Part shown: positions 9,336 through 62,871 of the stretch, one piece after another
How the letters are laid out: each line of letters begins with the position of its first letter
Position numbering within the stretch: position 1 is the stretch's first letter
IMG/VR virus record: IMGVR_UViG_3300049460_000123
Location: 1-64,000 of that record
Strand: one strand, 5' to 3'
DNA length: 64,000 nucleotides
Source of the DNA: a virus
Position numbers and translations under genes: made by a program
The notes under the pieces: generated by a model
What the model saw: only the letters and a program-made list of their open reading frames with translations
What the model was told of the DNA's origin: nothing
Databases searched by the model: none

Positions 9336-9351
9336 GTCGTGACTACAGCAT
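9336..9351 (+). promoter_or_regulatory. GTCGTGAC-class phage promoter
   Basis: GTCGTGAC-TA-CAGCAT. Confidence 0.7.
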
Positions 9352-9379
9352 AGCCCGTGTACAACACACAGGCTATGCA

Positions 9380-10693
9380 ATGGCTACCAAAGTACCTCAA
9401 GACCAGTTTGAGCGCACCGCGCGCAAGCACCAATTCAACGCGTATGCGACCGCAAAAGAGCTCGGACTCGATCACTCGAACGTACTCAAACGGATTCGCA
9501 AACTCAAAGAGCGGATCGGCGAGCAGCCGGCACACGAGCTCGAGCCTGCACCACCCGGCGCATATCGCGACCCCGCGAACCCGAAGCGCCTTATTCCACT
9601 GTCAGAAGATCAGCGCAAGTACCGCGCCGACTGGTCTGGCGAGGATTGCATCAACGAGCTGCGCCGCGTCGCGATGCTCGACGAATCGCGATCGGTCACG
9701 CGTAACTATTTTCGTGTGCACTCGGATATTTCAGAGGCTACGTGGTCAAAGCACTTCGGGTCGTTCCTCGAGTTTAAGCGTCAGGCAGCGCTGATTCTCT
9801 CACGCCATGCACACGGCCTCGAGCGCCACATCGCAAAGCACGCGAGCAAGGACAAGCAGCGCGAGATCAACGTCGAGAAGCGCCAATTCGAGGACGCATA
9901 CCTCCGCCCCAGCTCAAAGCGGTTTCAAACCGTGCTCGTCGGATCCGACATTCACGACATCGAGTGCGACCCATTCTGGCGCCGATGCTTCATGGACACC
10001 GCCAAGCGCGTGCAGCCGGAGAAGATCGTAATTAATGGAGACGCCCTGGACCTGCCAGAATTTTCGCGCTACTCGCAGGATCCGCGCGACTGGGACGTGC
10101 TGGGCCGAATCAAATGGCTCCATGAATTCCTTGGTGATCTGCGCACGACATCTCCCGAGTCGGAGATAGTCTACATCGCCGGCAACCATGAGGAGCGCCT
10201 CCTGATTCACCTCAGCGAAGCTACGCCCGCGCTCAAAGTCGTGCTGTCGGATCTGCACGGGTTCACGGTATCGAAGTTGCTCGGACTCGATCAATTCGAG
10301 GTGAATTTCATCTCGCGATGCGACTTGTCGACGTTCACGTCGGCAGACATCAAGCGCGAGCTGAAGAAGAACCACCACATCATGTATGACTGCCTTCTGG
10401 CGCACCACTTCCCTGAAGGCCGCGCAATGGCATACCCAGGGTTCAACGGCCATCACCACCGGCACGTTTCCTGGTCTAGCTACTCGCCGCAATTCGGCGC
10501 GTTCGAATGGCACCAGCTCGGCGCCGGCCACCGTCAAGCCGCGACGTATTGCGCCGGCGAGAAATGGGGCACCGGGTTTCTGCTCGCACACGTCGACACG
10601 CACACGAAGCAGACACAATTCGAATACATCGACGTGCGCGACTTCACCATGATAGGAGGCCGCTTCTACCAGCGGAAAGACGGCGAGATCTGA
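9380..10693 (+). CDS. Calcineurin-like metallophosphoesterase with N-terminal HTH / homing-endonuclease-associated repeat
   Basis: SDIH, NGDALD, GNHE, HH, GHHH motifs; N-terminal TAKELGLDHSNVLKRI and SEATWSKHFGSF. Confidence 0.85.
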   Translation: MATKVPQDQFERTARKHQFNAYATAKELGLDHSNVLKRIRKLKERIGEQPAHELEPAPPGAYRDPANPKRLIPLSEDQRKYRADWSGEDCINELRRVAMLDESRSVTRNYFRVHSDISEATWSKHFGSFLEFKRQAALILSRHAHGLERHIAKHASKDKQREINVEKRQFEDAYLRPSSKRFQTVLVGSDIHDIECDPFWRRCFMDTAKRVQPEKIVINGDALDLPEFSRYSQDPRDWDVLGRIKWLHEFLGDLRTTSPESEIVYIAGNHEERLLIHLSEATPALKVVLSDLHGFTVSKLLGLDQFEVNFISRCDLSTFTSADIKRELKKNHHIMYDCLLAHHFPEGRAMAYPGFNGHHHRHVSWSSYSPQFGAFEWHQLGAGHRQAATYCAGEKWGTGFLLAHVDTHTKQTQFEYIDVRDFTMIGGRFYQRKDGEI

Positions 10694-10695
10694 TA

Positions 10696-11385
10696 GTGGG
10701 CGCGATCTATCGGATCCGGAACCTGGTCGACGGGAAGGTGTACGTCGGCCAGGCCGTCAACGTCAAAAAGCGCATGTATCGCCACTTGTGGGAGTTGCGA
10801 TCCGATCGGCACACGAACACCCACCTGCAGCGAGCATGGAACGCCCGAGGCGAGCACAGTTTCGTGTTTGAGATCGTCGACGATGACGTCGACCTCGCCG
10901 AGATCACGCAGCGCGAGCAGTATCACATCGATGCGCACCGCTCAGCCGATCCGGAATTCGGCTACAACAAGTCGCCAGCGGCTGGCAGCAATCTAGGCGT
11001 GAAATACAGCGCAGAGTCGCGCAGGAAAATGAGCGAGGCACAGAAGGGGCGAACGTTCACGGACGACGCGCGCCGGCGCATTGCGCAGTCGCTAACCGGC
11101 AGAGTAATTTCTCCAGAGACGATCGCCAAACGCGTTGCTAAGACGAAAGGAATGAAGCGGACCGAAGAAACGCGACGCCTAATGACGGAAATTCATTGCG
11201 CCAAGAATGGCACGCAACCGCTCGAGGCATTCGGCCGGACGCAGCACATCAACGATTGGGCAAGAGAATACGGGATAAACACCGGCACATTGCGCAACCG
11301 GTTGAAACGATCAGGCATGCCGCTCGAACAGGCATTGACGGCGCCCAACCACAAAGGGCGCCGAAAAGACTTGATAGCAGCCTAA
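10696..11385 (+). CDS. Free-standing GIY-YIG homing endonuclease with NUMOD3 repeats
   Basis: GAIYRIRNLVDGKVYVGQ; EQYHID; GYN; SAESRRKMSEAQKG repeats. Confidence 0.9.
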   Translation: MGAIYRIRNLVDGKVYVGQAVNVKKRMYRHLWELRSDRHTNTHLQRAWNARGEHSFVFEIVDDDVDLAEITQREQYHIDAHRSADPEFGYNKSPAAGSNLGVKYSAESRRKMSEAQKGRTFTDDARRRIAQSLTGRVISPETIAKRVAKTKGMKRTEETRRLMTEIHCAKNGTQPLEAFGRTQHINDWAREYGINTGTLRNRLKRSGMPLEQALTAPNHKGRRKDLIAA

Positions 11386-11753
11386 GCAGCTTTCTCGATC
11401 GCGGCCGCTTCAGCAGCATGATCGGCCGCGACATCCATGCAGATCCCGAAGATCAACAACTGGCCGCACCGCTCGAACATCTCCGGATCCGCCGGAAACC
11501 AGCCGAGCCCGGCTAGAAAGCCCTCCGCATACCGCACCGGCGGAAAATCCACATACCGCACCGTCGAGCGCCAGCAATCATCGACAAACCGATAGATAGC
11601 CGCCGTGCGCGAGATCACTGGACCCCACTCCGCAAAGTCTGCGCGCACCTTGTCGCGCAGCGCGCCCTTTTCCCATTCCGTCATCCGCGAGCGCTCGCAG
11701 TAGAGATCGAACGCCTCGCGGAAACCGGCCGGAACCGATATTTGCGCTGTCAC
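11382..11753 (-). CDS. Hypothetical protein
   Basis: GTGA-overlap start with the deaminase stop. Confidence 0.6.
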   Translation of the reverse strand: MTAQISVPAGFREAFDLYCERSRMTEWEKGALRDKVRADFAEWGPVISRTAAIYRFVDDCWRSTVRYVDFPPVRYAEGFLAGLGWFPADPEMFERCGQLLIFGICMDVAADHAAEAAAIEKAA

Positions 11754-12082
11754 TGCGATACCGCCGGCGGCGCACCGATCGTCAGCGCCGCGACGCCCGC
11801 ACCGAACAGCGACTCCTGGCAATGCTGGCACGCGTACGTGTGCCCCTCGACATACGCGTGCGCGCCGCGCGCCAACTCGCCGGCCAGCTTGAGCGCGACT
11901 CTCTCAGCATGCCCCTCCTGCTGGCACACCGAGACGCACAAATCGTAACCTACGCCCGTCGGCAGACCCGCGCGCGGGCAGACGGCCTGCGGATTGTGGC
12001 ACCAGTTTTCGCCGACGATGCGATCGCCGCTCGCGGTTACCAGAGTGCAGCGCACGGTCGTTTTCACGCAAGGACCAATCAT
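11750..12082 (-). CDS. Cytidine/dCMP deaminase-like zinc enzyme
   Basis: HAE...ACQHC catalytic motif; ATGA coupling to the methyltransferase. Confidence 0.8.
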   Translation of the reverse strand: MIGPCVKTTVRCTLVTASGDRIVGENWCHNPQAVCPRAGLPTGVGYDLCVSVCQQEGHAERVALKLAGELARGAHAYVEGHTYACQHCQESLFGAGVAALTIGAPPAVSQ

Positions 12083-17964: not shown

Positions 17965-19677
17965 TCAAACGAGCGCCGGTTTTTCTTCGGCGACAGGCGC
18001 CAGCGTGCGCTGCATGAATTCTTTGAACTTCGCATACTCAGCCTCAGCCGGCGAGTTGAAAACGTCGTATGCGATCTGTTCTTTCTCGACGAGATCCAGC
18101 AGCTTTTCGCGCCACTCCTTCATCTCCTTCGGCTTCATCGACTTGACTGCATGGAACGGCTTGCCGAACTCAGCAAGGACCGTCTTGCCGGACCGCGCGC
18201 GCCACGCGTCGAGACCCATCTCGAGACTGGCGATCATCGACGCCTTTTCCTCGCGTGCCTTGACGATCTTTTCGGCGCGGCCCCGCGAATACCCGAGTTT
18301 CTCGACCATCTCGTCGACGGACTGCGCGCGCCCCTGATCCTCACGATTCTTTTTGCTCAGCGCGGCCGCCATCTCCGGCGTGATCTTTCCGAGCTTGCCC
18401 TCGACCTGCTCGAGCACGCGCGGGCCGATGATCGGATACTCGAACTTGCAGACCGGGCAGACCGGCGCCGGCTCGTGCACGTGGAAGCACTTCGGGCACT
18501 GCTTGACGGGAACGGTTTCCTCCTCCTCCTTCGCCTTGCCCTTGCCCTTCTTGCGGCCGTCGAGCGTCCACTCGCGATCCTCGTTCGGCATGCCGTGCTT
18601 ACGCTTGAATTCCCCGTCGACCATGCGGCCGACGTTGCCGACGTGATCGAGTAGCCACGCCTCAGTCTTGCCATCCTCCGGACGCTCGACGCGGCCAACC
18701 TGCTGCAGGAACAGCGATTCCGACGCTGTCGGCCGGAGCATGATGCAGCACTGCAGCGCCGGCAAGTCATACCCTTCGGACACCAGATCCACCGTGCACG
18801 CGCCCTGGAGATCGCCGGACTTCAGGCGCTTGTTCACCGCCGTGCGCTCTGCATCAGTCATATGCGGCTCGCCAACGAGAAGCGCGAACCGATAGCCCGC
18901 CGCGTTGAACTCGTCGGCGACGTGCTGCGCGTGCTTGACGCTGGCACAGAACACGATCGCGCGCGCGCCCGGGCAGATCTCGGTGTAGTGCGCGACGGCC
19001 GAGCCAGTGATGTGCGGTTTGTCGACACGATCCGCGACCTCCGCCGCGTTGTATTCGCCGTCCTTGTTTTTGCCGACCCCCTGCAGATCCGGTTGATCGA
19101 ACGACGAATAGACCGTCGACGCGATCAGATTCTTGCGCTCGATCAGCTCCGGCTTGGACGGCCCGAGCACCATCGACTTGAAGACGCCGCCGGCATGCTC
19201 GCCTAGCCCCTTGCCATCGGTGCGCACCGGCGTCGCCGTGACGCCCAGCATAGGCGGACGTCCGAGCATGTTGAATGCACGCCCCCACTTGTTATCCGCG
19301 ATGACGTGATGCGCCTCATCAAAAATGACCAAGCCGAATTTCATCGGGGTTTTTTTGAGACGGATCAGGAGCGTGTCGATACTGGCGACCTGGATCAACT
19401 GCGTCGCATCCGGCGTGAAGTGCGGCGAAATCATCCCGTGCTTGATCCCAAGCGAACGCAGCGACGCGGACGCCTGCAGGAGGAGCTCCTTACGATGGAC
19501 GATGATGCAGACAGGAGTGCCGCGCGCGGCAGCGCTGGATGCGATGTAGCTGAAGGTGTATGTCTTGCCGCCGCCAGCGGGCAGCACGAAAAGGACTGGA
19601 TGCTGGCCAGCACGGAATTCCGCACGGACCTCGTCGACAGCGGACTGTTGGTAGTCCCGAAGTGCAATGCTCGTCAT
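17965..19677 (-). CDS. SF2 DEAH helicase (RadD/UvsW-like) with zinc finger
   Basis: AGGGKT, DEAHH, TATP, EGYDLP, QQVGRVER, CPKC/CPVC. Confidence 0.92.
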   Translation of the reverse strand: MTSIALRDYQQSAVDEVRAEFRAGQHPVLFVLPAGGGKTYTFSYIASSAAARGTPVCIIVHRKELLLQASASLRSLGIKHGMISPHFTPDATQLIQVASIDTLLIRLKKTPMKFGLVIFDEAHHVIADNKWGRAFNMLGRPPMLGVTATPVRTDGKGLGEHAGGVFKSMVLGPSKPELIERKNLIASTVYSSFDQPDLQGVGKNKDGEYNAAEVADRVDKPHITGSAVAHYTEICPGARAIVFCASVKHAQHVADEFNAAGYRFALLVGEPHMTDAERTAVNKRLKSGDLQGACTVDLVSEGYDLPALQCCIMLRPTASESLFLQQVGRVERPEDGKTEAWLLDHVGNVGRMVDGEFKRKHGMPNEDREWTLDGRKKGKGKAKEEEETVPVKQCPKCFHVHEPAPVCPVCKFEYPIIGPRVLEQVEGKLGKITPEMAAALSKKNREDQGRAQSVDEMVEKLGYSRGRAEKIVKAREEKASMIASLEMGLDAWRARSGKTVLAEFGKPFHAVKSMKPKEMKEWREKLLDLVEKEQIAYDVFNSPAEAEYAKFKEFMQRTLAPVAEEKPALV

Positions 19678-19740: not shown

Positions 19741-19756
19741 ATGCTGCAGTCACGAC
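19741..19756 (-). promoter_or_regulatory. GTCGTGAC-class phage promoter (replication operon)
   Basis: GTCGTGAC-TG-CAGCAT. Confidence 0.65.
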
Positions 19757-20010
19757 TATTCGTCGTTGGCTAGCTTCCGTGCGTTGCGTGCGGCCGCGAT
19801 CTCAGCCTTTCGATCCGCGATGATCTGCTCCATCTGGTCGACGAGCTGGATTGTCTTCGGCACTTCGCCCTTACGCCAACGGTCCGGCGTGGCGCGCGAT
19901 ATGCCGCCGATCTCACAGATCGAAGTGAAGTTGAGCCCCACCTTTCGCGCGTCTTCTTCAATCTTTGCGACGCGTTCCCGGAAAACCTCACCAAAAGACT
20001 TGCTAGACAT
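19756..20010 (-). CDS. Cro/XRE-like HTH regulator
   Basis: GLNFTSICEIGGISRATPDRWRKG; lies at a divergent promoter region. Confidence 0.8.
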   Translation of the reverse strand: MSSKSFGEVFRERVAKIEEDARKVGLNFTSICEIGGISRATPDRWRKGEVPKTIQLVDQMEQIIADRKAEIAAARNARKLANDE

Positions 20011-27271: not shown

Positions 27272-27294
27272 TCAAAACAAGCCGTCATGAACCG

Positions 27295-27310
27295 ATTCTC
27301 GTGTCACGAC
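27295..27310 (-). promoter_or_regulatory. GTCGTGAC-class promoter (lysis)
   Basis: GTCGTGAC-AC-GAGAAT-N6-ATG. Confidence 0.75.
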
Positions 27311-27315: not shown

Positions 27316-27579
27316 TTAATCAGCCTCGCTGCCCTCAGTCGGTTGAATGCTGTTGGTGCAGTGATTCGTGTTGAGCCAGTTCAGGACGACGCACATGAGG
27401 CGACAGCCCGCGCACTTGCCGAGCTTCACGTTTTTTCCGAAGACAGACGACAGCCGTTCGCGCGGATCGCCAAAGCGCGCCGAGGGATCGGGGCAAAGGA
27501 GGAGATTCAGGAGAGGACCGGCGACAGCGTTTGCCGCTTGGTCGAGGATGAGGAGAAGATTCCAGAAATACCGAGCCAT
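27316..27579 (-). CDS. Conserved small phage protein
   Basis: LDQAANA...GDPRERLSS...NHC pattern. Confidence 0.7.
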   Translation of the reverse strand: MARYFWNLLLILDQAANAVAGPLLNLLLCPDPSARFGDPRERLSSVFGKNVKLGKCAGCRLMCVVLNWLNTNHCTNSIQPTEGSEAD

Positions 27580-27609: not shown

Positions 27610-27625
27610 ATGATGTCGTCACGAC
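27610..27625 (-). promoter_or_regulatory. GTCGTGAC-class promoter
   Basis: GTCGTGAC-GA-CATCAT-N6-ATG. Confidence 0.75.
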
Positions 27626-29626: not shown

Positions 29627-30079
29627 TTAGAACGAAATCGTCCACGTACCCGAGAACGTCAGGTCCGTGTCTTTGTTGAGCGGCGCCGTCCGCGTTTTCC
29701 GCGCATACAGCGCGCCACTGGCAGTAAGCAGTCCGAATTCAGAAATAGCCTTTCCGTTCGCCTCGCCAGTGCCGAGCGAGAACGCATACTGGACTTGGTT
29801 CGTCTGCGGATAGGAGTGGCCGTCTACAGCCTTGATATACGCGCTGGTGAGCACCGAGTTGCTGAACACAGGTGCAACCGCGCTCGTGCCGAACCCGATC
29901 TGCGTAACGCTCTGCCCCGTCACGTCGCCGCCGAGCAGCCTGGCGTGCGCCTGTTGCGAGCCGATTACGACCAGGTTCTTTTCTTCGAATACTTCGATGA
30001 GCTTGCCGGCGCGGCGAACTTCCAGGTAGAAGTCGCCGCGCGGCTTACGCTCAAAATCATCCCGTAGGGAAAGGTTCAT
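29627..30079 (-). CDS. Tail-collar/baseplate fibre-attachment protein
   Basis: NLVV, EANGKAISEFGL, YARKT; GGAGG RBS. Confidence 0.75.
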   Translation of the reverse strand: MNLSLRDDFERKPRGDFYLEVRRAGKLIEVFEEKNLVVIGSQQAHARLLGGDVTGQSVTQIGFGTSAVAPVFSNSVLTSAYIKAVDGHSYPQTNQVQYAFSLGTGEANGKAISEFGLLTASGALYARKTRTAPLNKDTDLTFSGTWTISF

Positions 30080-30102: not shown

Positions 30103-30118
30103 AGTGTGCTGTCACGAC
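30103..30118 (-). promoter_or_regulatory. GTCGTGAC-class promoter
   Basis: GTCGTGAC-AG-CACACT. Confidence 0.75.
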
Positions 30119-33294: not shown

Positions 33295-34451
33295 ACGTTC
33301 ACCGTCATGCCGTCATTGGCCGCCTTGACCATCGCCGCGAGCTGAGCGGGCGTGTATGGCGCAAGCACAGGATCCATATGCGCCAGTGCCGACAGGGACA
33401 CCTGCGCGCCCGCCGTCAGCGCGACCGGACCCGGCGCCGCTGCGCTCATCGGTGCGATCGACTCGAATGCATTCTTGTTCGCGAAGGCAGAGATCGGCGA
33501 ACCGCCCGCCGTGCTCGAGCAATTTGAGGAGCCGAACAGCGGCGTATAGTCCTGATACGTGTTCTGTCCAGTCAGCGCGTTTTTCAGCAGACAGCCGATG
33601 TTCGTGAATGCGCTCGCGATCCCCATGATCTGACCCATGAGTTGGCCCGGCAGGTTCATCACCGCCGCGATCGTCTGGAAGACCTTCGTCGCGCACTGGA
33701 CGAGCGTCGTCGCCACACTCATGAGCGCCTTGCCGATGCCAAGCACCGAATTCACCGCGCCCATGACCGCGTTACAGACCTTCGTCACAGCGCCGACGAA
33801 CGCCTTTACCGGCGCGAGAATGTTAGACGTGATCCACGACGAGATGCCGTTCATGAACGTCGTGATCGAGGTGATCGAGTCGATCAGCGATGTCAGGCCG
33901 AGCGCGCCGAGCACTTCGGATGCGATCGACGACGCCGGCGTGCTGTAGGCTCCGAGCTGGTCACTAATGACCGTCATCGGGATTTGATACTGAGCGAGCA
34001 GCGGCCGCGAGCGCGAGCGCCGCAGCACGAATTGCCCCGGAATAACCTGGCTCGTAAACTGGTCGAGCGCGTCGACGTACATGAGCTGGACGAAATCCGG
34101 ATTGCCGCCGCTCTGATAGGCCGCCAGGCGCCGCGCGTGCCACTGGTCGAACACCGTCGACTTGAGATCGATAAGGCGCTGGATACCGTCCTTGGCCGAC
34201 GAGTCGGACCGCCATCCGGTATTGCCCGAGATGTTGATCGTCGCTATGCCCGCCCCGAACTCATCGCCCCAGGCGCCCCCGAGTGTTTGCTGAACCGTCG
34301 TGCGCGATGGATCCGTGCGCGTCATCTCCTCCGGACGCACATACAGCTTCACCTCTGTCGGCGCATCGCTGGCGTTCAGATCGAACAAAAGGAAACTGAT
34401 CGGCGTGTCGCCGGCCTTCTGGGACGAGGGAGGAGTAGCGGATAAGCTCAT
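33291..34451 (-). CDS. Tail tube initiator / baseplate-associated protein
   Basis: VQQTLGGAWGDEFGAGIATINISGNTGW; synteny. Confidence 0.65.
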   Translation of the reverse strand: MSLSATPPSSQKAGDTPISFLLFDLNASDAPTEVKLYVRPEEMTRTDPSRTTVQQTLGGAWGDEFGAGIATINISGNTGWRSDSSAKDGIQRLIDLKSTVFDQWHARRLAAYQSGGNPDFVQLMYVDALDQFTSQVIPGQFVLRRSRSRPLLAQYQIPMTVISDQLGAYSTPASSIASEVLGALGLTSLIDSITSITTFMNGISSWITSNILAPVKAFVGAVTKVCNAVMGAVNSVLGIGKALMSVATTLVQCATKVFQTIAAVMNLPGQLMGQIMGIASAFTNIGCLLKNALTGQNTYQDYTPLFGSSNCSSTAGGSPISAFANKNAFESIAPMSAAAPGPVALTAGAQVSLSALAHMDPVLAPYTPAQLAAMVKAANDGMTVNV

Positions 34452-34457
34452 TACACC

Positions 34458-34473
34458 ATCGTAGTGTCACGAC
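34458..34473 (-). promoter_or_regulatory. GTCGTGAC-class promoter, leaderless
   Basis: GTCGTGAC-AC-TACGAT-N6-ATG(34451). Confidence 0.8.
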
Positions 34474-34496
34474 GCTGAGCCTATTCGCTCTCCTTA

Positions 34497-35372: not shown

Positions 35373-36843
35373 TCGCAAGCCCCGACAATTCAGCGTTATA
35401 GGGACTCTGCACGCCGGCGCCCGCCGTGACACGCTTCACAAAGCCGTTTCCGCGCTCGAGCTTAAGCGTCTGGAAAAGACCTTGATACGGTACATAGTCA
35501 GTATCGACACTCACAACATAGAACGTCGACTCGAACGAACCGCGCACAATGCGCACGTACTTGCCGGGCCGAATCAGTTCGTTCGCGCGAATCCGCGCCA
35601 TGCCGCTTTCGAACAGGACATTGTCCTTGTTCTGCGCGACCAGGATCGCACGCCGATCGTTGATCCAATTCGCCATGCTGGTGTCGCGCGTCCCCTGTTG
35701 ATCCGCCGGCAAGCCGCTATTCATCGTTGTGACGTCGTCGCCGCCCATCTGCGTTTCGGACTCCATCATCCGCAGACCGTAGAACTGTTCGGCGGAATTG
35801 ACGTAGTTGCCGAGATCGACCGTTTGCGCCGTCGCGCCCTGGATCGCGTACTGCTGGCGATAGATATCGCTCACGAGCTCGAATCGCGGCGCGCGCACCC
35901 AGTAATAGTTCGAAACGCCCGCGTCACTGCGCGAAACGCTCAGACTGATCACATCCTTGTCGAGCACATCGATCGTTTCGACGTCCGGCGCGTCTTCCTG
36001 AATCAGGCCGCCATTGATGTCCTTGAACGGCGTAGGCCGGTAGACGACATACTCGCCGTCCTCGCGCGACTCCGTATAGAGCTCGTTGAACGCGCCCACG
36101 TCACCAAAGTACGAGAGTAGGTAATAAATAGTGCCCTGCTGGTTTTGCGCACCGCCCACGTCCACGACGCCATGCACGACCGTGTTATCGATCTTGAACG
36201 CCGTCGGGTTCGATGTGTTCGCCGGCATCAGCGACGTCAGGAACGGATTGACGATTTTGTTCACCACTTCCGACAGGAACGTCGGAGCCGTCATCGACGT
36301 ATCAAAGCCAACGCCGAAGCGCTCGAACAGCTTGAAACTCGAGAGGTAGTTTTCGCCGATCACGTAGCCTGGCAGATACTTGATCTGCATCATTTGCCAG
36401 ATCTTGCCGAAGTCCTGCCCGGCGACCGTGATCGTGCGCTGCGGCTTGCCGTCTGGACTCATCGACTCCGTGCGCGAGATCTCCGACACGAACCCGCGCA
36501 TCAGGATAGGAGGCTTCGGCAGCAGATCCGTCGCGCTGCGCTGATTGTGGCGCATACGGATCTCGATCATATCCATCGGCTCGATCAGTCCGTAAAGCGA
36601 TTCGCGAGAGCCCTTTACAACGTATGGCTTGTCCGGCAGCGTGAGAGAAAATCCGCCGGCCGCCGACCGAACCGACTTCGTCACGCGCAGACTGCCCGAC
36701 TCGCCGATGAACGGCGTCAGGTCGATCGTCTGGTTCGTGTCGAGCACGCGCTGCGATACAGGCGTCTTACCATCGACCGTTTGCCGGCCGATGGTTTTGT
36801 ATAGCGTCAGAGTGAGCGCCGGCGTGTAGATGGAGATGTTCAT
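35365..36843 (-). CDS. Baseplate hub protein
   Basis: MRGFVSEISR...ITVAGQDFGK; synteny after tape measure. Confidence 0.75.
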   Translation of the reverse strand: MNISIYTPALTLTLYKTIGRQTVDGKTPVSQRVLDTNQTIDLTPFIGESGSLRVTKSVRSAAGGFSLTLPDKPYVVKGSRESLYGLIEPMDMIEIRMRHNQRSATDLLPKPPILMRGFVSEISRTESMSPDGKPQRTITVAGQDFGKIWQMMQIKYLPGYVIGENYLSSFKLFERFGVGFDTSMTAPTFLSEVVNKIVNPFLTSLMPANTSNPTAFKIDNTVVHGVVDVGGAQNQQGTIYYLLSYFGDVGAFNELYTESREDGEYVVYRPTPFKDINGGLIQEDAPDVETIDVLDKDVISLSVSRSDAGVSNYYWVRAPRFELVSDIYRQQYAIQGATAQTVDLGNYVNSAEQFYGLRMMESETQMGGDDVTTMNSGLPADQQGTRDTSMANWINDRRAILVAQNKDNVLFESGMARIRANELIRPGKYVRIVRGSFESTFYVVSVDTDYVPYQGLFQTLKLERGNGFVKRVTAGAGVQSPYNAELSGLANG

Positions 36844-36849
36844 GACGAC

Positions 36850-36865
36850 AGAATGCCGTCACGAC
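36850..36865 (-). promoter_or_regulatory. GTCGTGAC-class promoter, leaderless
   Basis: GTCGTGAC-GG-CATTCT-N6-ATG(36843). Confidence 0.8.
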
Positions 36866-42692: not shown

Positions 42693-43526
42693 TTAGTTAG
42701 GATATACAACGGTTACATCAACATCGACGATCGGATCGACTTGATCGCCAACCAAGACGGGCGCCATGCACGTGAAAGTGCCCGCAGCCTGGTAGACCGG
42801 CGCCGGATATTCCCCGCTCACCGCGTCAACGTCCTGAATTGAAAATTCGGGCTGCACAATGCCGTTGTCGTCGAACACCGGCAGGTTTCCGATCACGATC
42901 CGGCGGATTGCTTTGCGCAGCGAGATCCGCTCGTCCGGATTCATCGACCAGCCGATAACGGCGATCTGAACGTTTGCGAGCCACCCCTCCGCCTCAGTCC
43001 ATTGATTCGCCGTCTCGTCGAACGAGTCGGCGAGGAACTGCTCGCCGATCGCGCGCTCAGCAGGCGACTCGGACGTCAGGTGAACGCTCACCATCGGCCA
43101 GCGCGTGTCTTCGTACTGAGGCGGCGCAGTCAGCACCGGGATCGCACCGCTCGACGGCTTCAACGTGCCGCGCGTCACCTCGACGGCGAGTCCGGCTGCG
43201 ATGCGATCGCGAATGAGAGACAGGGAGTCGACGCTGTAATCGACATACGTCGCATTGGGAGTCGCCGAGACGACATTGCTTGCCGTCCACGTGGCGCCAT
43301 TCCAATAGAATGCGCAGTAGTACGTCTGAATGCCGTTCTGCAAGAACTGCACGTCGACGAGATAGTTGTCGGTCCCCTCGTATGCCACGAACGACGCCGG
43401 ATCTGTTTCGCCAGGAAACACGCCCGTGCCATTGCGCAGGATTCGCCAGTTAAGGGCGTCCGAAGGCGGCGCAAGGAAAACCTTTAGCGCGTTGCCGATC
43501 GGGAGAGGGACGACGAATGAAATCAT
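42693..43526 (-). CDS. Tail terminator/neck protein with N-terminal Ig-like domain
   Basis: WPMVSVHL; position before sheath. Confidence 0.65.
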   Translation of the reverse strand: MISFVVPLPIGNALKVFLAPPSDALNWRILRNGTGVFPGETDPASFVAYEGTDNYLVDVQFLQNGIQTYYCAFYWNGATWTASNVVSATPNATYVDYSVDSLSLIRDRIAAGLAVEVTRGTLKPSSGAIPVLTAPPQYEDTRWPMVSVHLTSESPAERAIGEQFLADSFDETANQWTEAEGWLANVQIAVIGWSMNPDERISLRKAIRRIVIGNLPVFDDNGIVQPEFSIQDVDAVSGEYPAPVYQAAGTFTCMAPVLVGDQVDPIVDVDVTVVYPN

Positions 43527-43532
43527 GAGAGT

Positions 43533-43573
43533 AGTGTGCTGTCACGACCACCCGCGAGACGTGACACTACACT
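43533..43573. promoter_or_regulatory. Back-to-back GTCGTGAC-class promoters (leftward 43533-43548; rightward variant GACGTGAC-AC-TACACT 43558-43573)
   Basis: Both carry the conserved A/T of the -10; the leftward one is leaderless to ATG 43526. Confidence 0.75.
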
Positions 43574-43594: not shown

Positions 43595-44449
43595 ATGGCT
43601 GAATTTCGAATCGCGGTAGATCTCTCGCAAGTGATGAACGCCGTGCCGATCATTACCCGGCAGGTTTTCCCACTGGTGAATCAGGCTGTGCGCGCGATCG
43701 CACAGCAGACGCAAGCGAACTGGATGGAGTCCGTCTACCGCGCGCACCTATGGAGTGGCGAGAAAGACGCCTATGCGAAGTCGATCGCCTGGGAAATGAC
43801 CGGCGACTTTTCCGCCGTCGTGAAGTCCGACTACAAGAACGCCGAGGAGATCGATCAGGGCCGCCCGCCGTACGACCTGAAACAGATGCTCAATACGTCG
43901 CCGAAGGTGCGGCGCACGAAGGACGGCCGGCGCTTCATGATCATTCCGTTTCGGCAGAACACCACCGGACAGGACGCGCTCACGCAAGGCATGCCGGAGG
44001 ACGTCTACACCGCCGCATCCGCGCTCAGCGCGAGCAAGATCGTCGCGCAGTCGAAACGCGCATCGGGGGAATTAACCTCGATCCATCCGAAATGGGGGAC
44101 GCAAGTCCTAAAGAAGCAGACGCCGTTCGCCTCGAACATCAAGACGCGCGGTCCGATGCTCGTCAACAAAAACATCTACAAGTGGGGAGGAAAGCTCGAC
44201 ACCAGCGGAATGGCGGGCCTCACCGACGCACAGAAGAAGCGCTATAACGGCATGGTGCGAATGACAGGCACCACGCCCGGAGGCGGGCGCTACAGTCAAT
44301 TCATGACGTTCCGCGTAATGATGGAAGGCAGCGCCGGCTGGATAATTCCGGCGCGCCCCGGCTTGAACCTGGCCCGCAACGTCGCCGCGAAGATTCAACC
44401 GCTCGCCGAGCGCGTGATCAACGAGGCGGTCGCACAGTCGTTCAAGTAG
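43595..44449 (+). CDS. Neck/tail-completion-like virion morphogenesis protein on the opposite strand
   Basis: AAGGAGG RBS; PPYDLKQML...RFMIIPFR...FMTFRV...GWIIP. Confidence 0.7.
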   Translation: MAEFRIAVDLSQVMNAVPIITRQVFPLVNQAVRAIAQQTQANWMESVYRAHLWSGEKDAYAKSIAWEMTGDFSAVVKSDYKNAEEIDQGRPPYDLKQMLNTSPKVRRTKDGRRFMIIPFRQNTTGQDALTQGMPEDVYTAASALSASKIVAQSKRASGELTSIHPKWGTQVLKKQTPFASNIKTRGPMLVNKNIYKWGGKLDTSGMAGLTDAQKKRYNGMVRMTGTTPGGGRYSQFMTFRVMMEGSAGWIIPARPGLNLARNVAAKIQPLAERVINEAVAQSFK

Positions 44450-49019: not shown

Positions 49020-49924
49020 GACTTACTCCGTTTGTTGAGTCCTACTTTCAAATCGCGCATAAAGCGCTCCGTGTATTCAGCCGCCTCGTCGAGAGAGAGG
49101 CCGAAATGTCTTGCGCAGTGCTTGACGATGTCGCGCGCGTTCGGCTTGGCTAGAAGCCCGCTGCGCATATCACCGGCGAGCCTGTCGCGGAAGTCGAAAT
49201 AGTTGGCGGGCTTGCCCATGTCGAGCGATTGCTTACCGAGTGCGGCGCCGCCAGTGAGCGATGCGCTATCGGTGCCGTAGCCGGCCTCGAGCGCCTTCGC
49301 GAAATCCAGTCCGCTCGCGCCCCAGCACTTCGCCAGCGCGTCGAAAGGGATCGTCTGAGCCGTCGGCAGGTTCTGATTCACGGGCGTGCGACTCAGCGCG
49401 ACGTTCGTCCAGCGGACCTTTTCAACGACTCCAATCTTGTTTTTCGTCTCCGGATCGATCTGCACGCTCTTTGCCAGCACGGCGCCGCCAACGGACGGAT
49501 ACCAGCGCGCCGGCGGATTGAGATTCGTCATCGAGTCCCAAACCATATTTGCGTTCTTAGCCAGATCCGTATCGCCGCTATAGAGCTGCGACTTGACGAA
49601 CGTGCGGCGCCCCTCGATCCGAACCTGCGTCGGGCGGCCGATCTCGTACAACTCGTGATTCGGGAGTCCGACGTAACCCGTGCGCGGGTTCGGTTTGCCG
49701 AGCAGGCTGTAGTGATCCAGATCGACGTTGCCGAACTTGAGGTAGTGGTCAGCGCTATCCTCGAGCGCTTTAGCCATTACCCGTTCGTTCTGCTGATCGA
49801 CCTTTTCATTGCTCGCCTCGAAATAGATGAAGCGATCTCCGCCTTCTTCGGCAGGGATTGCTTTGAACATCGACTCGATCTTTAGAAAATCGGGGATGTC
49901 TGCGAGGAGTTGTGTGTCGTCCAT
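49016..49924 (-). CDS. Prohead protease
   Basis: EASNEKVDQQNE, DLDH, PSVGG, NVALSRTPVN. Confidence 0.85.
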   Translation of the reverse strand: MDDTQLLADIPDFLKIESMFKAIPAEEGGDRFIYFEASNEKVDQQNERVMAKALEDSADHYLKFGNVDLDHYSLLGKPNPRTGYVGLPNHELYEIGRPTQVRIEGRRTFVKSQLYSGDTDLAKNANMVWDSMTNLNPPARWYPSVGGAVLAKSVQIDPETKNKIGVVEKVRWTNVALSRTPVNQNLPTAQTIPFDALAKCWGASGLDFAKALEAGYGTDSASLTGGAALGKQSLDMGKPANYFDFRDRLAGDMRSGLLAKPNARDIVKHCARHFGLSLDEAAEYTERFMRDLKVGLNKRSKS

Positions 49925-49931
49925 GAGATAA

Positions 49932-49947
49932 ATTCTCGTGTCACGAC
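49932..49947 (-). promoter_or_regulatory. GTCGTGAC-class promoter, leaderless (head operon)
   Basis: GTCGTGAC-AC-GAGAAT-N7-ATG(49924). Confidence 0.8.
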
Positions 49948-49988: not shown

Positions 49989-50018
49989 AAAAAGAAAAAG
50001 GCACCCGAAGGTGCCTTT
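49989..50018 (-). terminator. Intrinsic terminator
   Basis: AAAGGCACC-TTCG-GGTGCCTTT-TT (cUUCGg loop). Confidence 0.9.
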
Positions 50019-50036
50019 CATTGGAGAGGATGCTAG

Positions 50037-53300: not shown

Positions 53301-54889
53301 TGGCGGATCGCATCCTCGACGCCAGTCTTGCCGAGCGACACCTCGAGCTTGTCCTTTTTGCCCTGCTTCAGCGCGACCGACAGCGCCGCGTTCGCCTCCA
53401 TCTCGCCGAGCGCCTGCCCGAGAATCTTTTGCGCCTCGCCGATCGCCTCGCGCCGCGTGCCGTTGAGCGCCTGCGCAGTTTGCATGTCCGCGCCGCTCGC
53501 CGCATCGCTGAGCTCGATCTCCTTCGCCGACTTCATCAGATCGCGCGCGCGGCCCATCGCGTCAGCGCTCGCCGTCATGTAGTGGTGCATGTGGAAATCC
53601 TGCACGCCCGCCTGAATCCGCTCGACGTCGTCCGGCATGTCGGTGTGGATCCGGCGCGCGAGCACCTGCGCAGCGCCGGCGATGCCGAGCACGTCGACGA
53701 CACTGCGATCGACCAACGCGGATCCGCTCACGGCCAGCGCCAGCGAATTCACGCTGTTGTACGCTCCCACGCCGATATGCTTGCCGAGCGTCTCGGACGG
53801 ATCGCCGCCGGCGACCTTGCCGACTTCGGACAGGAACGTCAGGGTTTGCGCCGTGCGCAAGTCCTGCTCGATATCCTTCGCGATTTTCTCGTCAGCGTCC
53901 GGATCTGCCGTGTACTCGAGCACGTAGGCTTTGGGCTCGACGGTCGACTTGTCGATCTCCGCCTTTGCCTGCTTCGCCTGCTCCTGGACCTTTTTGAGCG
54001 CCTTTTGCGCGCGCAGCAACTCGACCGCCTTTTGAGCGCTCGTCAGGGTTGCGTCCGGCACTGGCGCGACCGGCTCGCGAATGTTTTTGAGCTCCTCTCG
54101 CACCATGCGCGCAGTGTCGCCGCGCTTGATCGCCGCCTCGCGCTGGCTATCCGTCATCGTCGACAGTTTCGCCGCGCGCGCCTGATCTACCTCCGTGCGC
54201 AGTTCCTTTTCCGTCAGACCGGCTTTCTCGGCGCGGCCCTTGTAATCCTTCGCGTAGCCGAGTCCGTCGGACACCTGCGGCACCGGGTTCAAATCCTGAA
54301 CCGTGAGTGTGTCCGGATCATCCGTGTGCACCGGAATCTCGCCGATGCCGGCGTCCATGCGCGCCGCGCTATCCGTCACCAGCCGTTCACGCTGTAGCCC
54401 AACGGCGTCAGTCGCGCGTTTCAGGATCTCGCGATGATGCTGTGCCTCGAGCTTCTTGCGGGCCGCCGGAGACAGATCCTTATGCGCCTCCGCATCGAAC
54501 TCCGTTTCCTTCTTGTCCCAGCCGAGCGTGCTCGCGACCGTGTCGACGAACTCCTTCTCCGCTTTCTTCCGCTGCACCTGGATCGCCTCATGAGCCTTTT
54601 GCTTCGACTCATGGATCCCGGCCTCCTTGTCGGCCTTGACCTTGTCTTTGCGCGCCTTGGCCGCGTCAGCCTTCTTCGCCGCCGCTTCGGCCTTGTATTC
54701 CGACTCGTGCTTGACCGCGCGCAGGCGCAGGTGATTCATCGAGCCGCCAGCGCCGCCGATCACCGTCGAGCTTCCATCTGGATTCGGCTGGATCAGGATA
54801 GGCTGGCCCGTGCCGTCGCCGTGCGAGTGCACCGTGATCCATCTCGCGCCAGCGGGAATGGATGCTTTGAGGAGGAGAATTTTGCGCAT
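50339..54889 (-). CDS. Large polyvalent protein with C-terminal SNF2/SF2 helicase (DarB-helicase-like)
   Basis: GAGSGKT, DEAH, GMNLQ, QRNARIHR; start re-called to 54889 (MRKILLLKAS). Confidence 0.85.
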   Translation of the reverse strand: MRKILLLKASIPAGARWITVHSHGDGTGQPILIQPNPDGSSTVIGGAGGSMNHLRLRAVKHESEYKAEAAAKKADAAKARKDKVKADKEAGIHESKQKAHEAIQVQRKKAEKEFVDTVASTLGWDKKETEFDAEAHKDLSPAARKKLEAQHHREILKRATDAVGLQRERLVTDSAARMDAGIGEIPVHTDDPDTLTVQDLNPVPQVSDGLGYAKDYKGRAEKAGLTEKELRTEVDQARAAKLSTMTDSQREAAIKRGDTARMVREELKNIREPVAPVPDATLTSAQKAVELLRAQKALKKVQEQAKQAKAEIDKSTVEPKAYVLEYTADPDADEKIAKDIEQDLRTAQTLTFLSEVGKVAGGDPSETLGKHIGVGAYNSVNSLALAVSGSALVDRSVVDVLGIAGAAQVLARRIHTDMPDDVERIQAGVQDFHMHHYMTASADAMGRARDLMKSAKEIELSDAASGADMQTAQALNGTRREAIGEAQKILGQALGEMEANAALSVALKQGKKDKLEVSLGKTGVEDAIRQARAIGLQRGDYQIENVGGDTFLTVHGAGMDRLAKPIDRADIEQVKRNLDIIAGGQDEDDWLPLGVANRPDLAMNVQPGVAPRIAEPFAPGEDLEQSLRDYIGGRTADGDAPGDIVADIQSGDFFQQVGAASAEQYRTALDAVAPLKGEDGNMRRAEELGDSFDKYADEFVEARHGATRSPMNRQKFTVDQKSVEALHRALAETPEGTAAYKQIGDLTNQDQAALREHFYKNVAKESPEAGAMRQDLERLTANEPEKETTDMFGDSTENPEWTDWKSQRDELAGKINASSLTWGKYLETMGGNAKAYEAVQDLIKSKVSRSFAEAHNKLNPGNPLKIGRAVVRNNLNHLDATDHAARDARRARERELTDSLRERSGGRYASGSVSDKLDAARDQREAFEQSQMGFFAGDEPDMFGGAEEPKERALAGDERHTIGHEAERQLAGMMGIVGKNFKPGKPTKMWNVSMNGKYANQQRAIKMLAENKRLGLAFGAGSGKTNVMLGGFAHLHGLGKVKRSVMLVPSVVQGQFSGEALRLLEPGKFKWHIEPGASQESRIAAYKDPDTHICVMTHQSFRGDMVHLGATHAGIDENAMTEQLGKMTPDDRQAWIKGVMDKEGINFDASFIDEAHDTLNRAGKENSTLANVTDALSAHTPYYTYASGESGFKNDTSEVYSMLQKLDPKRYQDRAAFMRRYGADTMASKDALKREMARYTFPAQITPDVEASRKRETVDLTPAQRTAMDTLSSNLAAARIARMRGKVDVAAIKAISPSSFEGVPEADHEKIAEALQKSIGIMKSSAMQRIIDTHPDNAKVNRIADLVQARGNKQGVVFARNRAAVEAIRERLEKQGKRVVTITGSDTAKEKDRKRSMFNPEKGEAQADILIASDAGAVGMNLQSGEYLIQHDIPATAKTHAQRNARIHRLGQTRNVELIDMQANHPEETRARDRLEKKYGMRDLMSSSLEGLDDTGVAYFLKQRQAAQQSDTHDLF

Positions 54890-54896
54890 GACCATA

Positions 54897-54912
54897 ATTT
54901 TCTGGTCACGAC
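54897..54912 (-). promoter_or_regulatory. GTCGTGAC-class promoter, leaderless
   Basis: GTCGTGAC-CA-GAAAAT-N7-ATG(54889). Confidence 0.8.
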
Positions 54913-60241: not shown

Positions 60242-60267
60242 GGGGAGCCTATAAGGAGCATCCCCAT

Positions 60268-60283
60268 ATGATCAAGTCACGAC
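60268..60283 (-). promoter_or_regulatory. GTCGTGAC-class promoter with 7-codon leader ORF
   Basis: GTCGTGAC-TT-GATCAT-N6-ATG(60261); MLLIGSP* overlaps ATG 60241. Confidence 0.75.
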
Positions 60284-61051: not shown

Positions 61052-62198
61052 TCGAATTTCCCAGTACGCTACGTAGGTAATCGCCGAACGCCTTGTCATC
61101 GCCCGGCTCGTCTTGAATGGTCGGAACCCATCGGCCCCGGCAATGCGGATGCTGCGCGCCGGCGGCAATCCAGTACATCTCCTCCGGCTCGCGATGCACG
61201 AGGATGGTCCCGACGCGCTTACGCGGCGCATTGGATCGCCCCATGTTCGTTTTGCCCGGCCAAATCTGCGTCATGCCGTCCTTGTCAGGCGCATCCGGCG
61301 AGACAACCTCGACGATCGTGCCATCGATCTTTCGGCACCACGAACACGCATTGCGGTATTGCTCGACGCGCCTCAGCTTGGATCCGACTGGCATGCTCGA
61401 GACATAGCCCTGATTCTGGTTCTCAGTCGTCTCCGTCTCAGCGATGCGCCGCCAGTCGCGATTGAGCGTCGCAAACTCGTCGTGCAACGTCGTTTGTAAC
61501 GAGTGGCGCGGGCCGGGCGTGCCGAGGAACGTCTGTCCCGTGTGCTCGAGCACCACCTGGCGCATGCGATGCCGCGCGTTATCGGCGAGGCGCTGGACGT
61601 TCTCCACGCCGCGCACGCGTGCATAGTCGAGAATGATCGACTGCACCGGCGACATGGTGAACGCCGCGCGCGCCGCGCTCACGGTCGACGGCAGCGCCTC
61701 GAGCAGCGTATCAGCCTGCTTGGCCGTCAGGCTTTCCATGTTCGCCTGCACGCGCCCCATGAACGTCGAGCGCACGGCGAGCCATTCCGCTTCGGTGCGC
61801 ATGTCACTGGCGGGCAAATAGCGTTGCGCCAGGTAGTCGACGACCATCATCCAGTCGTCGAGCGTGAATTCCGCCGGCGGAAGCGATTCGAGGTAGAGCT
61901 TGACGAGCGACAGCTCGGACGCCGACCAGCGCTGCATGTACCCATCCGGCCGCGCCACGCGCGAGCCTGCGTGATGCTTCTCGCCGGCGAGCCACTGCTC
62001 GAGCTCCTTGCGGAACCCGTCGAGGCGCATCAGTCCGCGACGCGTGAACAACTCCACTAGGCGGCGCACGAACGGATTTTCGTGCTCCGACCAGATCGAA
62101 TCGTCATCGTCATGGCTGTGGATCGCCTTGTAGATGGTGTTTAGGGCGCGGTCTGACTGTTGCTCCGTCAATTCGCCGATATCGAGTAGTAGGGTCAT
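61038..62198 (-). CDS. Head morphogenesis protein (MuF/SPP1 gp7-like)
   Basis: RDWRRIAETE, ACSWC, HPHCRGRW. Confidence 0.85.
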   Translation of the reverse strand: MTLLLDIGELTEQQSDRALNTIYKAIHSHDDDDSIWSEHENPFVRRLVELFTRRGLMRLDGFRKELEQWLAGEKHHAGSRVARPDGYMQRWSASELSLVKLYLESLPPAEFTLDDWMMVVDYLAQRYLPASDMRTEAEWLAVRSTFMGRVQANMESLTAKQADTLLEALPSTVSAARAAFTMSPVQSIILDYARVRGVENVQRLADNARHRMRQVVLEHTGQTFLGTPGPRHSLQTTLHDEFATLNRDWRRIAETETTENQNQGYVSSMPVGSKLRRVEQYRNACSWCRKIDGTIVEVVSPDAPDKDGMTQIWPGKTNMGRSNAPRKRVGTILVHREPEEMYWIAAGAQHPHCRGRWVPTIQDEPGDDKAFGDYLRSVLGNSNAAD

Positions 62199-62204
62199 TT
62201 CATC

Positions 62205-62220
62205 ATCCTGCCGTCACGAC
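62205..62220 (-). promoter_or_regulatory. GTCGTGAC-class promoter, leaderless
   Basis: GTCGTGAC-GG-CAGGAT-N6-ATG(62198). Confidence 0.8.
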
Positions 62221-62236
62221 AAAATCACGCACAGAC

Positions 62237-62256
62237 TTACTCATTTTTGATACACT
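62237..62256 (+). promoter_or_regulatory. 18-bp operator TTACTCATTTTTGATACA overlapping extended -10 TGnTACACT
   Basis: Identical to the reverse complement of 20042-20059. Confidence 0.75.
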
Positions 62257-62290
62257 CCGCTTTCTCGAAATTTCTCAAATACCGACGGTC

Positions 62291-62746
62291 ATGCAGAAAA
62301 CGCCAGTGCCCCGCGCGAAGAAAGTCACGAACGCCATGCAGCTAGCCGGAGCCCGTCCGGCATTGCGCGCGATCGAATCAATCATGGCGACATGGAATAG
62401 CCCGAGCGGCCCGGAGGCGGATCCGCAGGACATCGTCGGTCTGCAAGGGTTCTTTCTCGGATATGATCGAGTGTGCAAAAACTCCGGCGTGCCGTTTGAC
62501 GCGTCGATCGCCGACGAGATCCTCGATCGGATGCACCATGACAAGCCCGTATCGCGCGCCGACATTCACACGCTGCACGTCGAGGCGCACAAGCTACTGC
62601 GCGCCGCTCGATCGGTACGCAGCATCGACATCTGGCTTGAAAGCCTGCAGGACATGGAGATCTACTGTCACGTGCACGGCTGGCAATGGAAGGGAATCGG
62701 GAGAGCTCCGGCAGGTTTCTCCGCCGGAGTGCAGATCGCCGCGTAG
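62291..62746 (+). CDS. Hypothetical protein, operator-controlled, opposite to head genes
   Basis: ORF track; own promoter and operator. Confidence 0.7.
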   Translation: MQKTPVPRAKKVTNAMQLAGARPALRAIESIMATWNSPSGPEADPQDIVGLQGFFLGYDRVCKNSGVPFDASIADEILDRMHHDKPVSRADIHTLHVEAHKLLRAARSVRSIDIWLESLQDMEIYCHVHGWQWKGIGRAPAGFSAGVQIAA

Positions 62747-62850
62747 CGTGCGGATACGGTCAGATCATCGCGGGAGATACGCTCACTCTGACTGCGGGTC
62801 GTTTTAGGCCGACGGTCCCGCGCACGGCGTCGCCCTCTCGCCAAGGAACA
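62747..62850 (-). ncRNA. Candidate structured ncRNA (three-way junction)
   Basis: Non-coding; stems CGTGCG/CGCACG, GTCAGA/TCTGAC, GCGGG/CCCGC; upstream promoter variant. Confidence 0.35.
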
Positions 62851-62855
62851 CTTTC

Positions 62856-62871
62856 AGTATGCAATCACGAC
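62856..62871 (-). promoter_or_regulatory. GTCGTGAC-class promoter variant (GTCGTGAT-TG-CATACT)
   Basis: One mismatch, good -10, no adjacent gene. Confidence 0.55.

Follow-up and report, generated by a model that had tools for sequence, protein, structure and literature searches.

A probable class of phage promoters without a -35 element, with predicted leaderless mRNAs and a candidate zinc-protein reader

Two described phage systems are the closest points of comparison for the promoters considered here. Phage P1 has 11 dispersed late promoters (PMC10695390), and Thermus phage Lalka27a has 16 late promoters with the consensus TAGGGT plus a C at -25, the transcripts of which are mostly leaderless and for which its authors infer a phage factor that modifies the host polymerase (bioRxiv 10.64898/2026.04.20.719267). 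Here, we analyzed a 64,000-nucleotide (nt) stretch of phage DNA (positions 1 to 64,000 of IMG/VR record IMGVR_UViG_3300049460_000123, hereafter the window), in which a 16-bp element recurs that consists of the octamer GTCGTGAC, two bases, and a hexamer of the form nAnnnT. Taking all evidence together, we consider it likely that these elements are a phage-specific class of promoters without a -35 element that give rise to leaderless mRNAs, with the early protein A174 as the best candidate for the reader of the octamer.

The window covers the first 64 kb of a phage genome of 93,508 bp, which has direct terminal repeats, and it contains 14 exact copies of the octamer GTCGTGAC (13 on the minus strand and one on the plus strand). 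In 100 dinucleotide-preserving shuffles, 3.68 ± 1.99 copies were expected and none of the shuffles reached 14. With the hexamer included (GTCGTGAC-N3-A-N3-T), the whole genome has 17 sites, 16 on the minus strand, which carries the late genes, and one on the plus strand; a reversed-pattern control found no site across the whole genome. A sequence-only reading of the window had listed 12 exact octamers and two one-mismatch variants, GACGTGAC at 43558 (plus strand) and GTCGTGAT at 62864 (minus strand). All of them were recovered at these places, and each of the 14 precedes two bases and a hexamer in which the second base is A and the sixth is T. The list had missed two exact octamers, one at 17582, which is intragenic and has no hexamer, and one at 1989, which sits within a canonical TTGACT-17-GACAAT promoter. 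Exact octamers without the hexamer also occur inside genes at 64341 and 75511 of the genome, and further variants with a hexamer were found at 81925, 88167, and 92874.

The fixed spacing is shared by the clade of related phages. Among 219 GTCGTGA heptamers on the late strand of 14 clade genomes, 160 (73%) have A at +11 and T at +15, against a background expectation of 4%; on the other strand of the same genomes, six of 52 heptamers are followed by the hexamer. A logo built from 58 unique sites of five phages contains no information 5' of the octamer and thus no conserved -35 element, which agrees with the earlier impression that none was evident. The two spacer bases are free (≤0.2 bit) and the hexamer takes the form nAnn(A/C)T. 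When the hexamer is numbered -12 to -7, the octamer falls at -22 to -15 and the free bases at -14/-13. The hexamer then retains A-11 and T-7, which are the bases that sigma-70-family factors flip out, and T-12 is absent. Furthermore, the 58 sites show no TG at -15/-14, and a TG lies instead at -18/-17.

The sites, placed by the sequence-only reading in or at the edge of intergenic DNA, lie between genes or at gene 3' ends, and they are always oriented with the downstream gene. The late region is not enriched in canonical sigma-70 promoters (4 seen versus 4.4 expected). The 16-bp element is very probably a promoter, as argued by its fixed geometry, strand bias, and intergenic position, by a strong terminator upstream of one site (Table 1), by the lack of a Shine-Dalgarno (SD) sequence, and by the conservation of motif and spacing before orthologous genes. 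It would form the core of a middle/late promoter, with GTCGTGA(C/T) at about -22 to -15, two free bases, and nAnn(A/C)T at -12 to -7. Because T-12, the TG extension, and a -35 element are all absent, the missing binding energy would have to come from the octamer, through a phage protein that retargets the host RNA polymerase.

The strictly fixed distance to the hexamer, the orientation of the copies with downstream genes, and the lack of alternative promoter elements make it very improbable that the octamer is instead an operator or another protein site (for a repressor, packaging, or recombination) that merely lies near ordinary promoters. Its partial dyad, GTC-NN-GAC, would suit such a site, and the copy at 1989 lies across the sigma-70 promoter that serves the A174 operon, so that a protein bound there would act as a repressor, but this copy is not conserved in relatives. 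Autoregulation of A174 through the copy at 1989 was likewise rejected, as the octamer is not conserved in 26 orthologous upstream regions.

The units under the motif include lysis; tail fibre, baseplate, sheath, and tube; protease, scaffold, and capsid; and portal and terminase. The motif also serves two giant DarB-like proteins and, in this phage, a helicase-primase operon (19749) and one gene on the plus strand (9336); because of the latter two, the proposed middle/late regulon would here be middle plus late. The gene at 9336 encodes a metallophosphoesterase-like protein, and its orthologue in Bordetella phage PHB04 is preceded by GTCGTGAT-cg-CACAAT at 71227.

By capsid DNA, the nearest cultured phages are PHB04, Aeromonas phage ST4, and the Pseudomonas putida phages Dolphis and Jeremy. 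A scan of relatives, which had been suggested as a check, found the same motif and spacing ahead of orthologous genes of distant relatives. Motif and spacing are alike in PHB04, Dolphis, Jeremy, ST4, Touem01, ECML-606-1, fHe-Yen8-01, and phiT5282EW, and the hosts of the motif-bearing cultured relatives are Bordetella, Pseudomonas (including P. syringae), Aeromonas, E. coli, Yersinia, and Enterobacter. Every cultured relative that was checked carries the motif, although Morganella phage Mecenats66 is left with a few degenerate sites. In 80 IMG/VR loci, each centred on a capsid homologue, the motif was present in 74, down to 47% capsid identity; the exceptions were four short fragments and one divergent lineage. 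These loci have nearly all of their copies on the coding strand, with an ATG 6-7 nt past the hexamer in about half of them. The motif-bearing genomes span 46-67% G+C.

In one deviating lineage (G025/G027), the motif is relaxed to nnCG(G/T)GAC-N2-nAnnnT, and some sites still have an ATG 6-7 nt past the hexamer. G027, the complete form of G025/G026, has the octamers TTCGGGAC, GTTGGGAC, GCCGGGAC, and TACGTGAC at an unchanged distance from the hexamer. Its A174 homologue (35% identity) is among the most divergent and bears a basic C-terminal extension of ~40 residues. Covariation of motif and reader in this lineage was considered and rejected: there is no clean change of specificity, and other homologues of 35% identity keep the standard motif.

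Bacterial genomes carry the motif as prophage clusters, with 19 sites on a 95-kb Paraburkholderia contig, 15 on a 93-kb Mesorhizobium contig, and 11 inside 63 kb of the Microvirga lupini chromosome. Elsewhere in these genomes the sites are scattered over both strands, and clusters occur solely inside the prophage; therefore, the motif is not part of a host regulon. The motif thus appears to work, or at least to persist, in Alpha-, Beta-, and Gammaproteobacteria. This breadth could be explained by a universally conserved host surface, and the hexamer is a weak -10 element, so that host RNA polymerase alone, or with a conserved host factor, might use these promoters with no phage reader. We find this improbable, given the absence of a host regulon and the expectation that sites without a -35 element, T-12, or TG at -15/-14 should be very weak for the holoenzyme. 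In addition, the octamer matches, to our knowledge, none of the consensus sequences for sigma-32, sigma-24, sigma-28, sigma-54, CRP, or LexA. A CRP half-site, a LexA box, sigma-54 and sigma-32 promoters, a -10 element of the extracytoplasmic function type, and SD-like pairing were also compared and set aside, since they do not fit the geometry.

Transcription from these promoters would begin 6-7 nt past the hexamer, and at about half of them this would be the A of the operon's first ATG. Such an mRNA, with neither leader nor SD, would be translated as a leaderless mRNA. The sequence-only reading had counted an ATG 14-15 nt past the octamer at nine of its 14 sites, as we do, and had taken six of these as true gene starts; each of the six begins an open reading frame (ORF) of 277-1516 codons with orthologues among the genes of relatives (Table 1). 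In the whole genome, eight ATGs that open ORFs of 121-1516 codons lie 6 or 7 nt past the hexamer, the six in the window and two beyond it at 65215 and 82641. Counted together with those of PHB04, Dolphis, ST4, and Jeremy, the sites number 66, and at 31 of them an ATG at this distance opens a long ORF. The genes concerned are orthologous between phages (portal, protease, 386-aa, 277-aa, and tube-initiator-like proteins; aa, amino acids), and the geometry recurs in Touem01 and in metagenomic genomes of 46% and 67% G+C. The start at 34451 has its match in PHB04 (4740), Dolphis (23666), and Touem01, and the orthologue of the gene at 43526 also has a leaderless-type start in PHB04, Dolphis, ST4, Touem01, and ECML-606-1.

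The 20 nt before the leaderless-type ATGs show no better pairing to the anti-SD sequence than random sites do (median -2.05 kcal/mol, versus -2.7 at random sites and -5.6 before other genes), although this comparison is biased by a gene caller that had rewarded SD sequences in choosing starts. A second point of caution is the start at 62198, which has AGGA 8 nt upstream and could conceivably also be translated from read-through RNA. With these reservations, we judge that leaderless mRNAs probably arise from the promoters. The SD-reliant gene caller mis-assigned the starts at 34451 and 54889, and SD-dependent start finders miscall leaderless genes of this kind.

The enteric branch of the clade shows a different arrangement. 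E. coli phage ECML-606-1 (OL631484) has nine motif promoters, just one of which has the leaderless geometry, and its protease and portal orthologues have leaders of ~22 nt with a weak SD-like AAGG. At 34491 of this phage, TTT and then a TGA stop follow the ATG at the predicted +1. As far as these genomes indicate, the promoter is constant while the start mode differs between lineages, which argues that an ATG at +1 would be a selected feature where it occurs.

The half of the sites that lack an ATG at the 14-15 nt distance still keep both octamer and hexamer. This speaks against an element that acts in RNA, as a processing or ribosome-loading signal before the AUG in polycistronic transcripts. 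Such a signal would account for the fixed ATG distance in the other half, and pairing partners can be named for it: GUGAU can base-pair with AUCAC, which lies near the 3' end of 16S rRNA, and GUCGUGAC could pair with (G)UCAUGAC near some start codons. However, the conserved A and T suit -10 recognition and not pairing with rRNA, an SD would have to lie closer to the start codon than 14-15 nt, at least one site has a terminator ahead of it, and the bases beside the ATG carry ≤0.2 bit over the 58 sites. We therefore hold an RNA signal to be highly implausible. It should be noted that (G)TCATGA(C) sequences near the start codons at 27286-27310, 36840-36865, and 54886-54912 could pair with the octamer in read-through RNA (GUCGUGAC with GUCAUGAC); given the low information beside the ATG, this octamer-start codon pairing is not generally conserved.

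We return to promoters that are activated by a phage protein. When the 123 predicted genes were compared with 11 diverse clade genomes, the universal genes were those for the virion and terminase plus only two others, A174 and B92, and the replication genes were swapped out in some members of the clade. A174 is a basic protein of 174 aa with the conserved motif CxRC...RLIGK.xC.SCxNRxxE..G.N.KG, and B92, a zinc-ribbon protein of 92 aa, is its candidate partner. Both genes are present in all 24 motif-bearing near-complete genomes and are adjacent almost always. In a tblastn search of a phage collection, A174 was found in exactly the ten records that have the capsid at ≥39% identity, and the Thermus phages, which are the next capsid relatives, gave no A174 match. 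As one would expect of an early gene, strong promoters of the sigma-70 or extended -10 type precede the A174/B92 orthologues. The reader would thus be made from an early operon under an ordinary sigma-70 promoter, and would consist of A174, perhaps together with B92. The main argument is the co-occurrence of the motif with A174, and it inclines us, if not strongly, towards A174 as the protein that reads the octamer.

The association extends to bacterial genomes. Around 69 bacterial A174 homologues, 36 motif sites were found within 3 kb, in 30 loci, compared with ~0.8 expected from the motif density of five whole genomes. In Burkholderia, Noviherbaspirillum, Cupriavidus, and Paraburkholderia, distant homologues of the A174 gene have a motif promoter 30-130 nt upstream, once at leaderless spacing. 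In five genomes with such homologues and an upstream motif, the query used found no homologue of the clade capsid. Burkholderia sp. 8Y, Cupriavidus ulmosensis, and Paraburkholderia sp. DGU8 have two divergent motif promoters back to back before a short A174-like gene, and these loci may represent a different mobile element that uses the same switch.

Several observations weigh against A174 and B92 as readers. The co-occurrence would also fit if A174 were a regular target of the promoter and not its reader. Only 33 of the 69 bacterial A174 homologues have B92 within 3 kb, and the B92 homologue of Yersinia phage fHe-Yen8-01 (2031-2375) is annotated as a "particle associated protein", which may mean that it is packaged, if the annotation rests on virion proteomics. 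In five genomes that have distant A174 homologues, the exact motif does not clearly cluster genome-wide, and Morganella phage Mecenats66 has A174 yet just a few degenerate motif sites. In addition, no recognisable DNA- or polymerase-binding fold was found in A174 or B92, with just a generic zinc-ribbon/CxxC resemblance, in searches with Foldseek on the PDB (both proteins), VIA-align (A174 only), hidden Markov models against PDB sequences, the ESM Atlas, Pfam, PHROGs, and NCBIfam. The AlphaFold models are of high confidence, with predicted local distance difference test scores of 86 (A174) and 90 (B92), and that of A174 is a mixed alpha/beta zinc protein. In favour of A174, some members of its family bear a winged-helix-like N-terminal segment; P0131 and P0159 (367 and 474 aa) combine such an N-terminus (a weak MarR_2 match, E = 0.001) with the A174 domain and a long C-terminal tail.

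As A174 and B92 have no known fold, a sigma-like role is conceivable, and an element that is short, -35-less, and near-invariant across hosts resembles the promoters of phage polymerases or sigma factors. We nevertheless regard it as unlikely that a strongly diverged phage sigma factor or RNA polymerase, and not an activator on the sigma-70 holoenzyme, reads these promoters. Sigma-70 region 2 (PF04542) had no match in the six-frame translated genome at E ≤ 10, while control genomes matched in 11 of 14 cases, and the mixed alpha/beta model of A174 differs from sigma region 2, which is all-helical. The clade shares no polymerase-sized protein other than products of the virion, terminase, and replication genes. 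Moreover, the sites conserve A-11 and T-7 at the proper distance from +1, which is the -10 signature of the sigma-70 family.

Other candidates for the reader were less satisfactory than A174. The sequence-only reading had named four possible activators; the genes at 62291, 8770, and 3338 have no homologue in any of four cultured relatives, and the TraR/DksA-like gene at 25106 occurs in just 8 of the 24 motif-bearing genomes. A helix-turn-helix protein at 19756-20010 was rejected because it is present in 17 of these 24 genomes. B92 was rejected as an FlhC-like activator since its C-terminal zinc knuckle alone matches, at 18.5 bits in Pfam (cut-off 27) and 17.9 bits in NCBIfam (cut-off 216). The ORF at 62291 was also dismissed as a homologue of the P1 activator Lpa, with E = 0.05 over 38 residues and no PHROG match. 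This 151-aa ORF (62291-62746, plus strand) has no family match and runs antisense to the RNA that the variant promoter at 62864 is predicted to give, and it may not be a gene.

The A174 family comprises 945 cluster representatives (clusters at 50% identity). Tentatively, and as a possibility that goes beyond the promoters of this phage, A174 with or without B92 might belong to an undescribed family of zinc transcription factors that retargets host sigma-70 polymerase to a portable, -35-less promoter of 16 bp, active unchanged in Alpha-, Beta-, and Gammaproteobacteria, with leaderless translation as the normal mode for the first genes of late operons.

Table 1 Coordinates of the predicted promoters, associated genes, and related features in the window.
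Feature	Coordinates	Strand	Gene or remark
B92, 92-aa zinc-ribbon protein, candidate A174 partner	1146..1424	-	6 invariant Cys, 1 invariant His
A174, basic 174-aa protein, early gene	1430..1954	-	8 conserved Cys (7 invariant, 1 nearly)
Canonical sigma-70 promoter TTGACT-17-GACAAT of the A174-B92 operon	1986..2014	-	GTCGTGAC (1989-1996) overlaps spacer and -10
Predicted promoter GTCGTGAC-ta-CAGCAT	9336..9351	+	Only exact plus-strand copy; 437-aa metallophosphoesterase-like gene (9380-10693), leader present
Predicted promoter GTCGTGAC-tg-CAGCAT	19741..19756	-	Operon of helicase, single-stranded DNA-binding protein (SSB), and primase (17965-19677 and on); leader present
Predicted promoter GTCGTGAC-ac-GAGAAT	27295..27310	-	ATG at predicted +1 opens a short ORF only
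Predicted promoter GTCGTGAC-ga-CATCAT	27610..27625	-	87-aa gene 27316-27579; leader present
Predicted promoter GTCGTGAC-ag-CACACT	30103..30118	-	Tail-fibre unit (29627-30079, 28105-29616); leader with SD
Predicted promoter and +1 on ATG 34451, leaderless	34451..34473	-	386-aa tail-tube-initiator-like protein
Predicted promoter and +1 on ATG 36843, leaderless	36843..36865	-	492-aa virion-module protein
Predicted promoter and +1 on ATG 43526, leaderless	43526..43548	-	Operon: 277-aa protein, sheath, tube
Predicted divergent variant promoter GACGTGAC-ac-TACACT	43558..43573	+	Conserved 284-aa gene 43595-44449
Predicted promoter and +1 on ATG 49924, leaderless	49924..49947	-	Operon: prohead protease, scaffold, major capsid protein
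Intrinsic terminator, 10-bp stem and T tract	49996..50019	-	~50 nt upstream of the 49947 promoter
Predicted promoter and +1 on ATG 54889, leaderless	54889..54912	-	1516-aa DarB-like helicase protein
Predicted promoter GTCGTGAC-tt-GATCAT	60268..60283	-	1660-aa methyltransferase/LPD1 polyvalent protein (start 60241); leader present
Predicted promoter and +1 on ATG 62198, leaderless	62198..62220	-	Conserved 386-aa protein
Predicted variant promoter GTCGTGAT-tg-CATACT	62856..62871	-	One-mismatch octamer

Some of the listed sites have further features. Behind the promoter at 27295..27310, the true gene begins 17 nt beyond the ATG at the predicted +1, behind GGAAGGAA. The divergent variant at 43558 has a counterpart in Dolphis, GGCGTGAC-gc-GACACT-N6-ATG, and GTCGTGAT, the variant octamer at 62864, is the commonest octamer form in ST4. 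Beyond the window, a motif promoter on the minus strand at 80269-80276 of the genome is aimed at the end of the plus-strand early-gene block (65.7-80.0 kb) and adjoins a stretch of ~1 kb without ORFs (80.0-81.35 kb); a late antisense RNA over the early genes is possible from there.

The genome has a G+C content of 61% and encodes an integrase, a myovirus-type morphogenesis module, and P1-like DarB/Ulx-type genes. The closest homologue (85% identity) of one of its genes is carried by a 95,111-bp Paraburkholderia contig from a metagenome-assembled genome, which suggests that the host is probably Paraburkholderia or a close relative. The A174 operon is separated from the rightward early genes by an 800-bp gap with an origin-like region (2200-2620), where an AT-rich stretch (ATATATATATACATACAC...) is flanked by many direct and inverted copies of GGTATCT/TGGTATC. 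A homing endonuclease gene of the GIY-YIG/HNH type (10696-11385, plus strand) follows the metallophosphoesterase-like gene and has no counterpart at this place in PHB04.

If these predictions hold, a compact and apparently host-independent promoter with a candidate cognate factor could serve as an orthogonal expression switch. The phages would also offer a natural system for efficient leaderless translation in Pseudomonas, Burkholderia, and Aeromonas, with the E. coli branch, in which leaders precede the orthologous protease and portal genes, as a built-in contrast. In addition, a large uncharacterised family of zinc proteins gains a concrete candidate function, and gene starts are corrected where SD-based finders err. 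The published literature that we searched contains no description of this motif and no transcript maps for these phages.

Compared with known systems, the promoters resemble most those of P1 (LPs, LPsit, LPpac, and others), which also require the host protein SspA, in their logic of activation. In both phages, many late operons have promoters with a -10 hexamer, no -35 element, and a short conserved element just upstream, and both are temperate phages of ~94 kb with DarB/Ulx-like genes. The upstream element of P1 is taken as the site of an early-made phage activator, Lpa, and the P1 box shares the core GTGAC with the octamer. The analogy to P1, which the sequence-only reading had drawn, thus stands for the arrangement and fails in its details. 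In six annotated P1 late promoters that we extracted, the box is AAGTGACTT, an inverted repeat of 9 bp that has its centre at -22 and a spacer of 4 nt, whereas the element here is an asymmetric 8-mer that is centred at about -18.5 and separated from the hexamer by 2 nt, which brings GTGAC 4 bp closer than in P1. None of the six P1 promoters has an ATG at the predicted +1, and the Lpa family (phrog_1704) has no match in the six-frame translated genome at E ≤ 10.

Extended -10 promoters of sigma-70, which carry TGn, work without a -35 element through extra contacts just upstream of the -10. The promoters described here share the lack of a -35 element but differ in having the TG at -18/-17, free bases at -14/-13, and no T-12. 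A contrast exists within the same genomes, since in relatives the A174 operon has early promoters of the true extended -10 type (GGTGATATAAT).

The Thermus phages (Lalka27a and phiYS40) share with this clade the use of many late promoters with a distinctive element near the -10, a host polymerase that is presumably modified, and transcripts that are mostly leaderless there and predicted to be so at about half of the promoters here, and the Lalka capsid proteins are the nearest outside the clade (~33% identity). However, the Thermus consensus is unlike GTCGTGAC-N2-nAnnnT, and the tblastn search gave no A174 match there. Activator-dependent promoters without a -35 element (P1) and leaderless late transcripts (Thermus phages) have thus been known separately, and their combination, which is undescribed for phages of Proteobacteria in the literature searched, is here predicted to be conserved across hosts. 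The present analysis adds A174/B92 as a candidate reader, the contrast offered by the enteric branch, the lineage with a variant motif, and the clustering of sites in prophages only.

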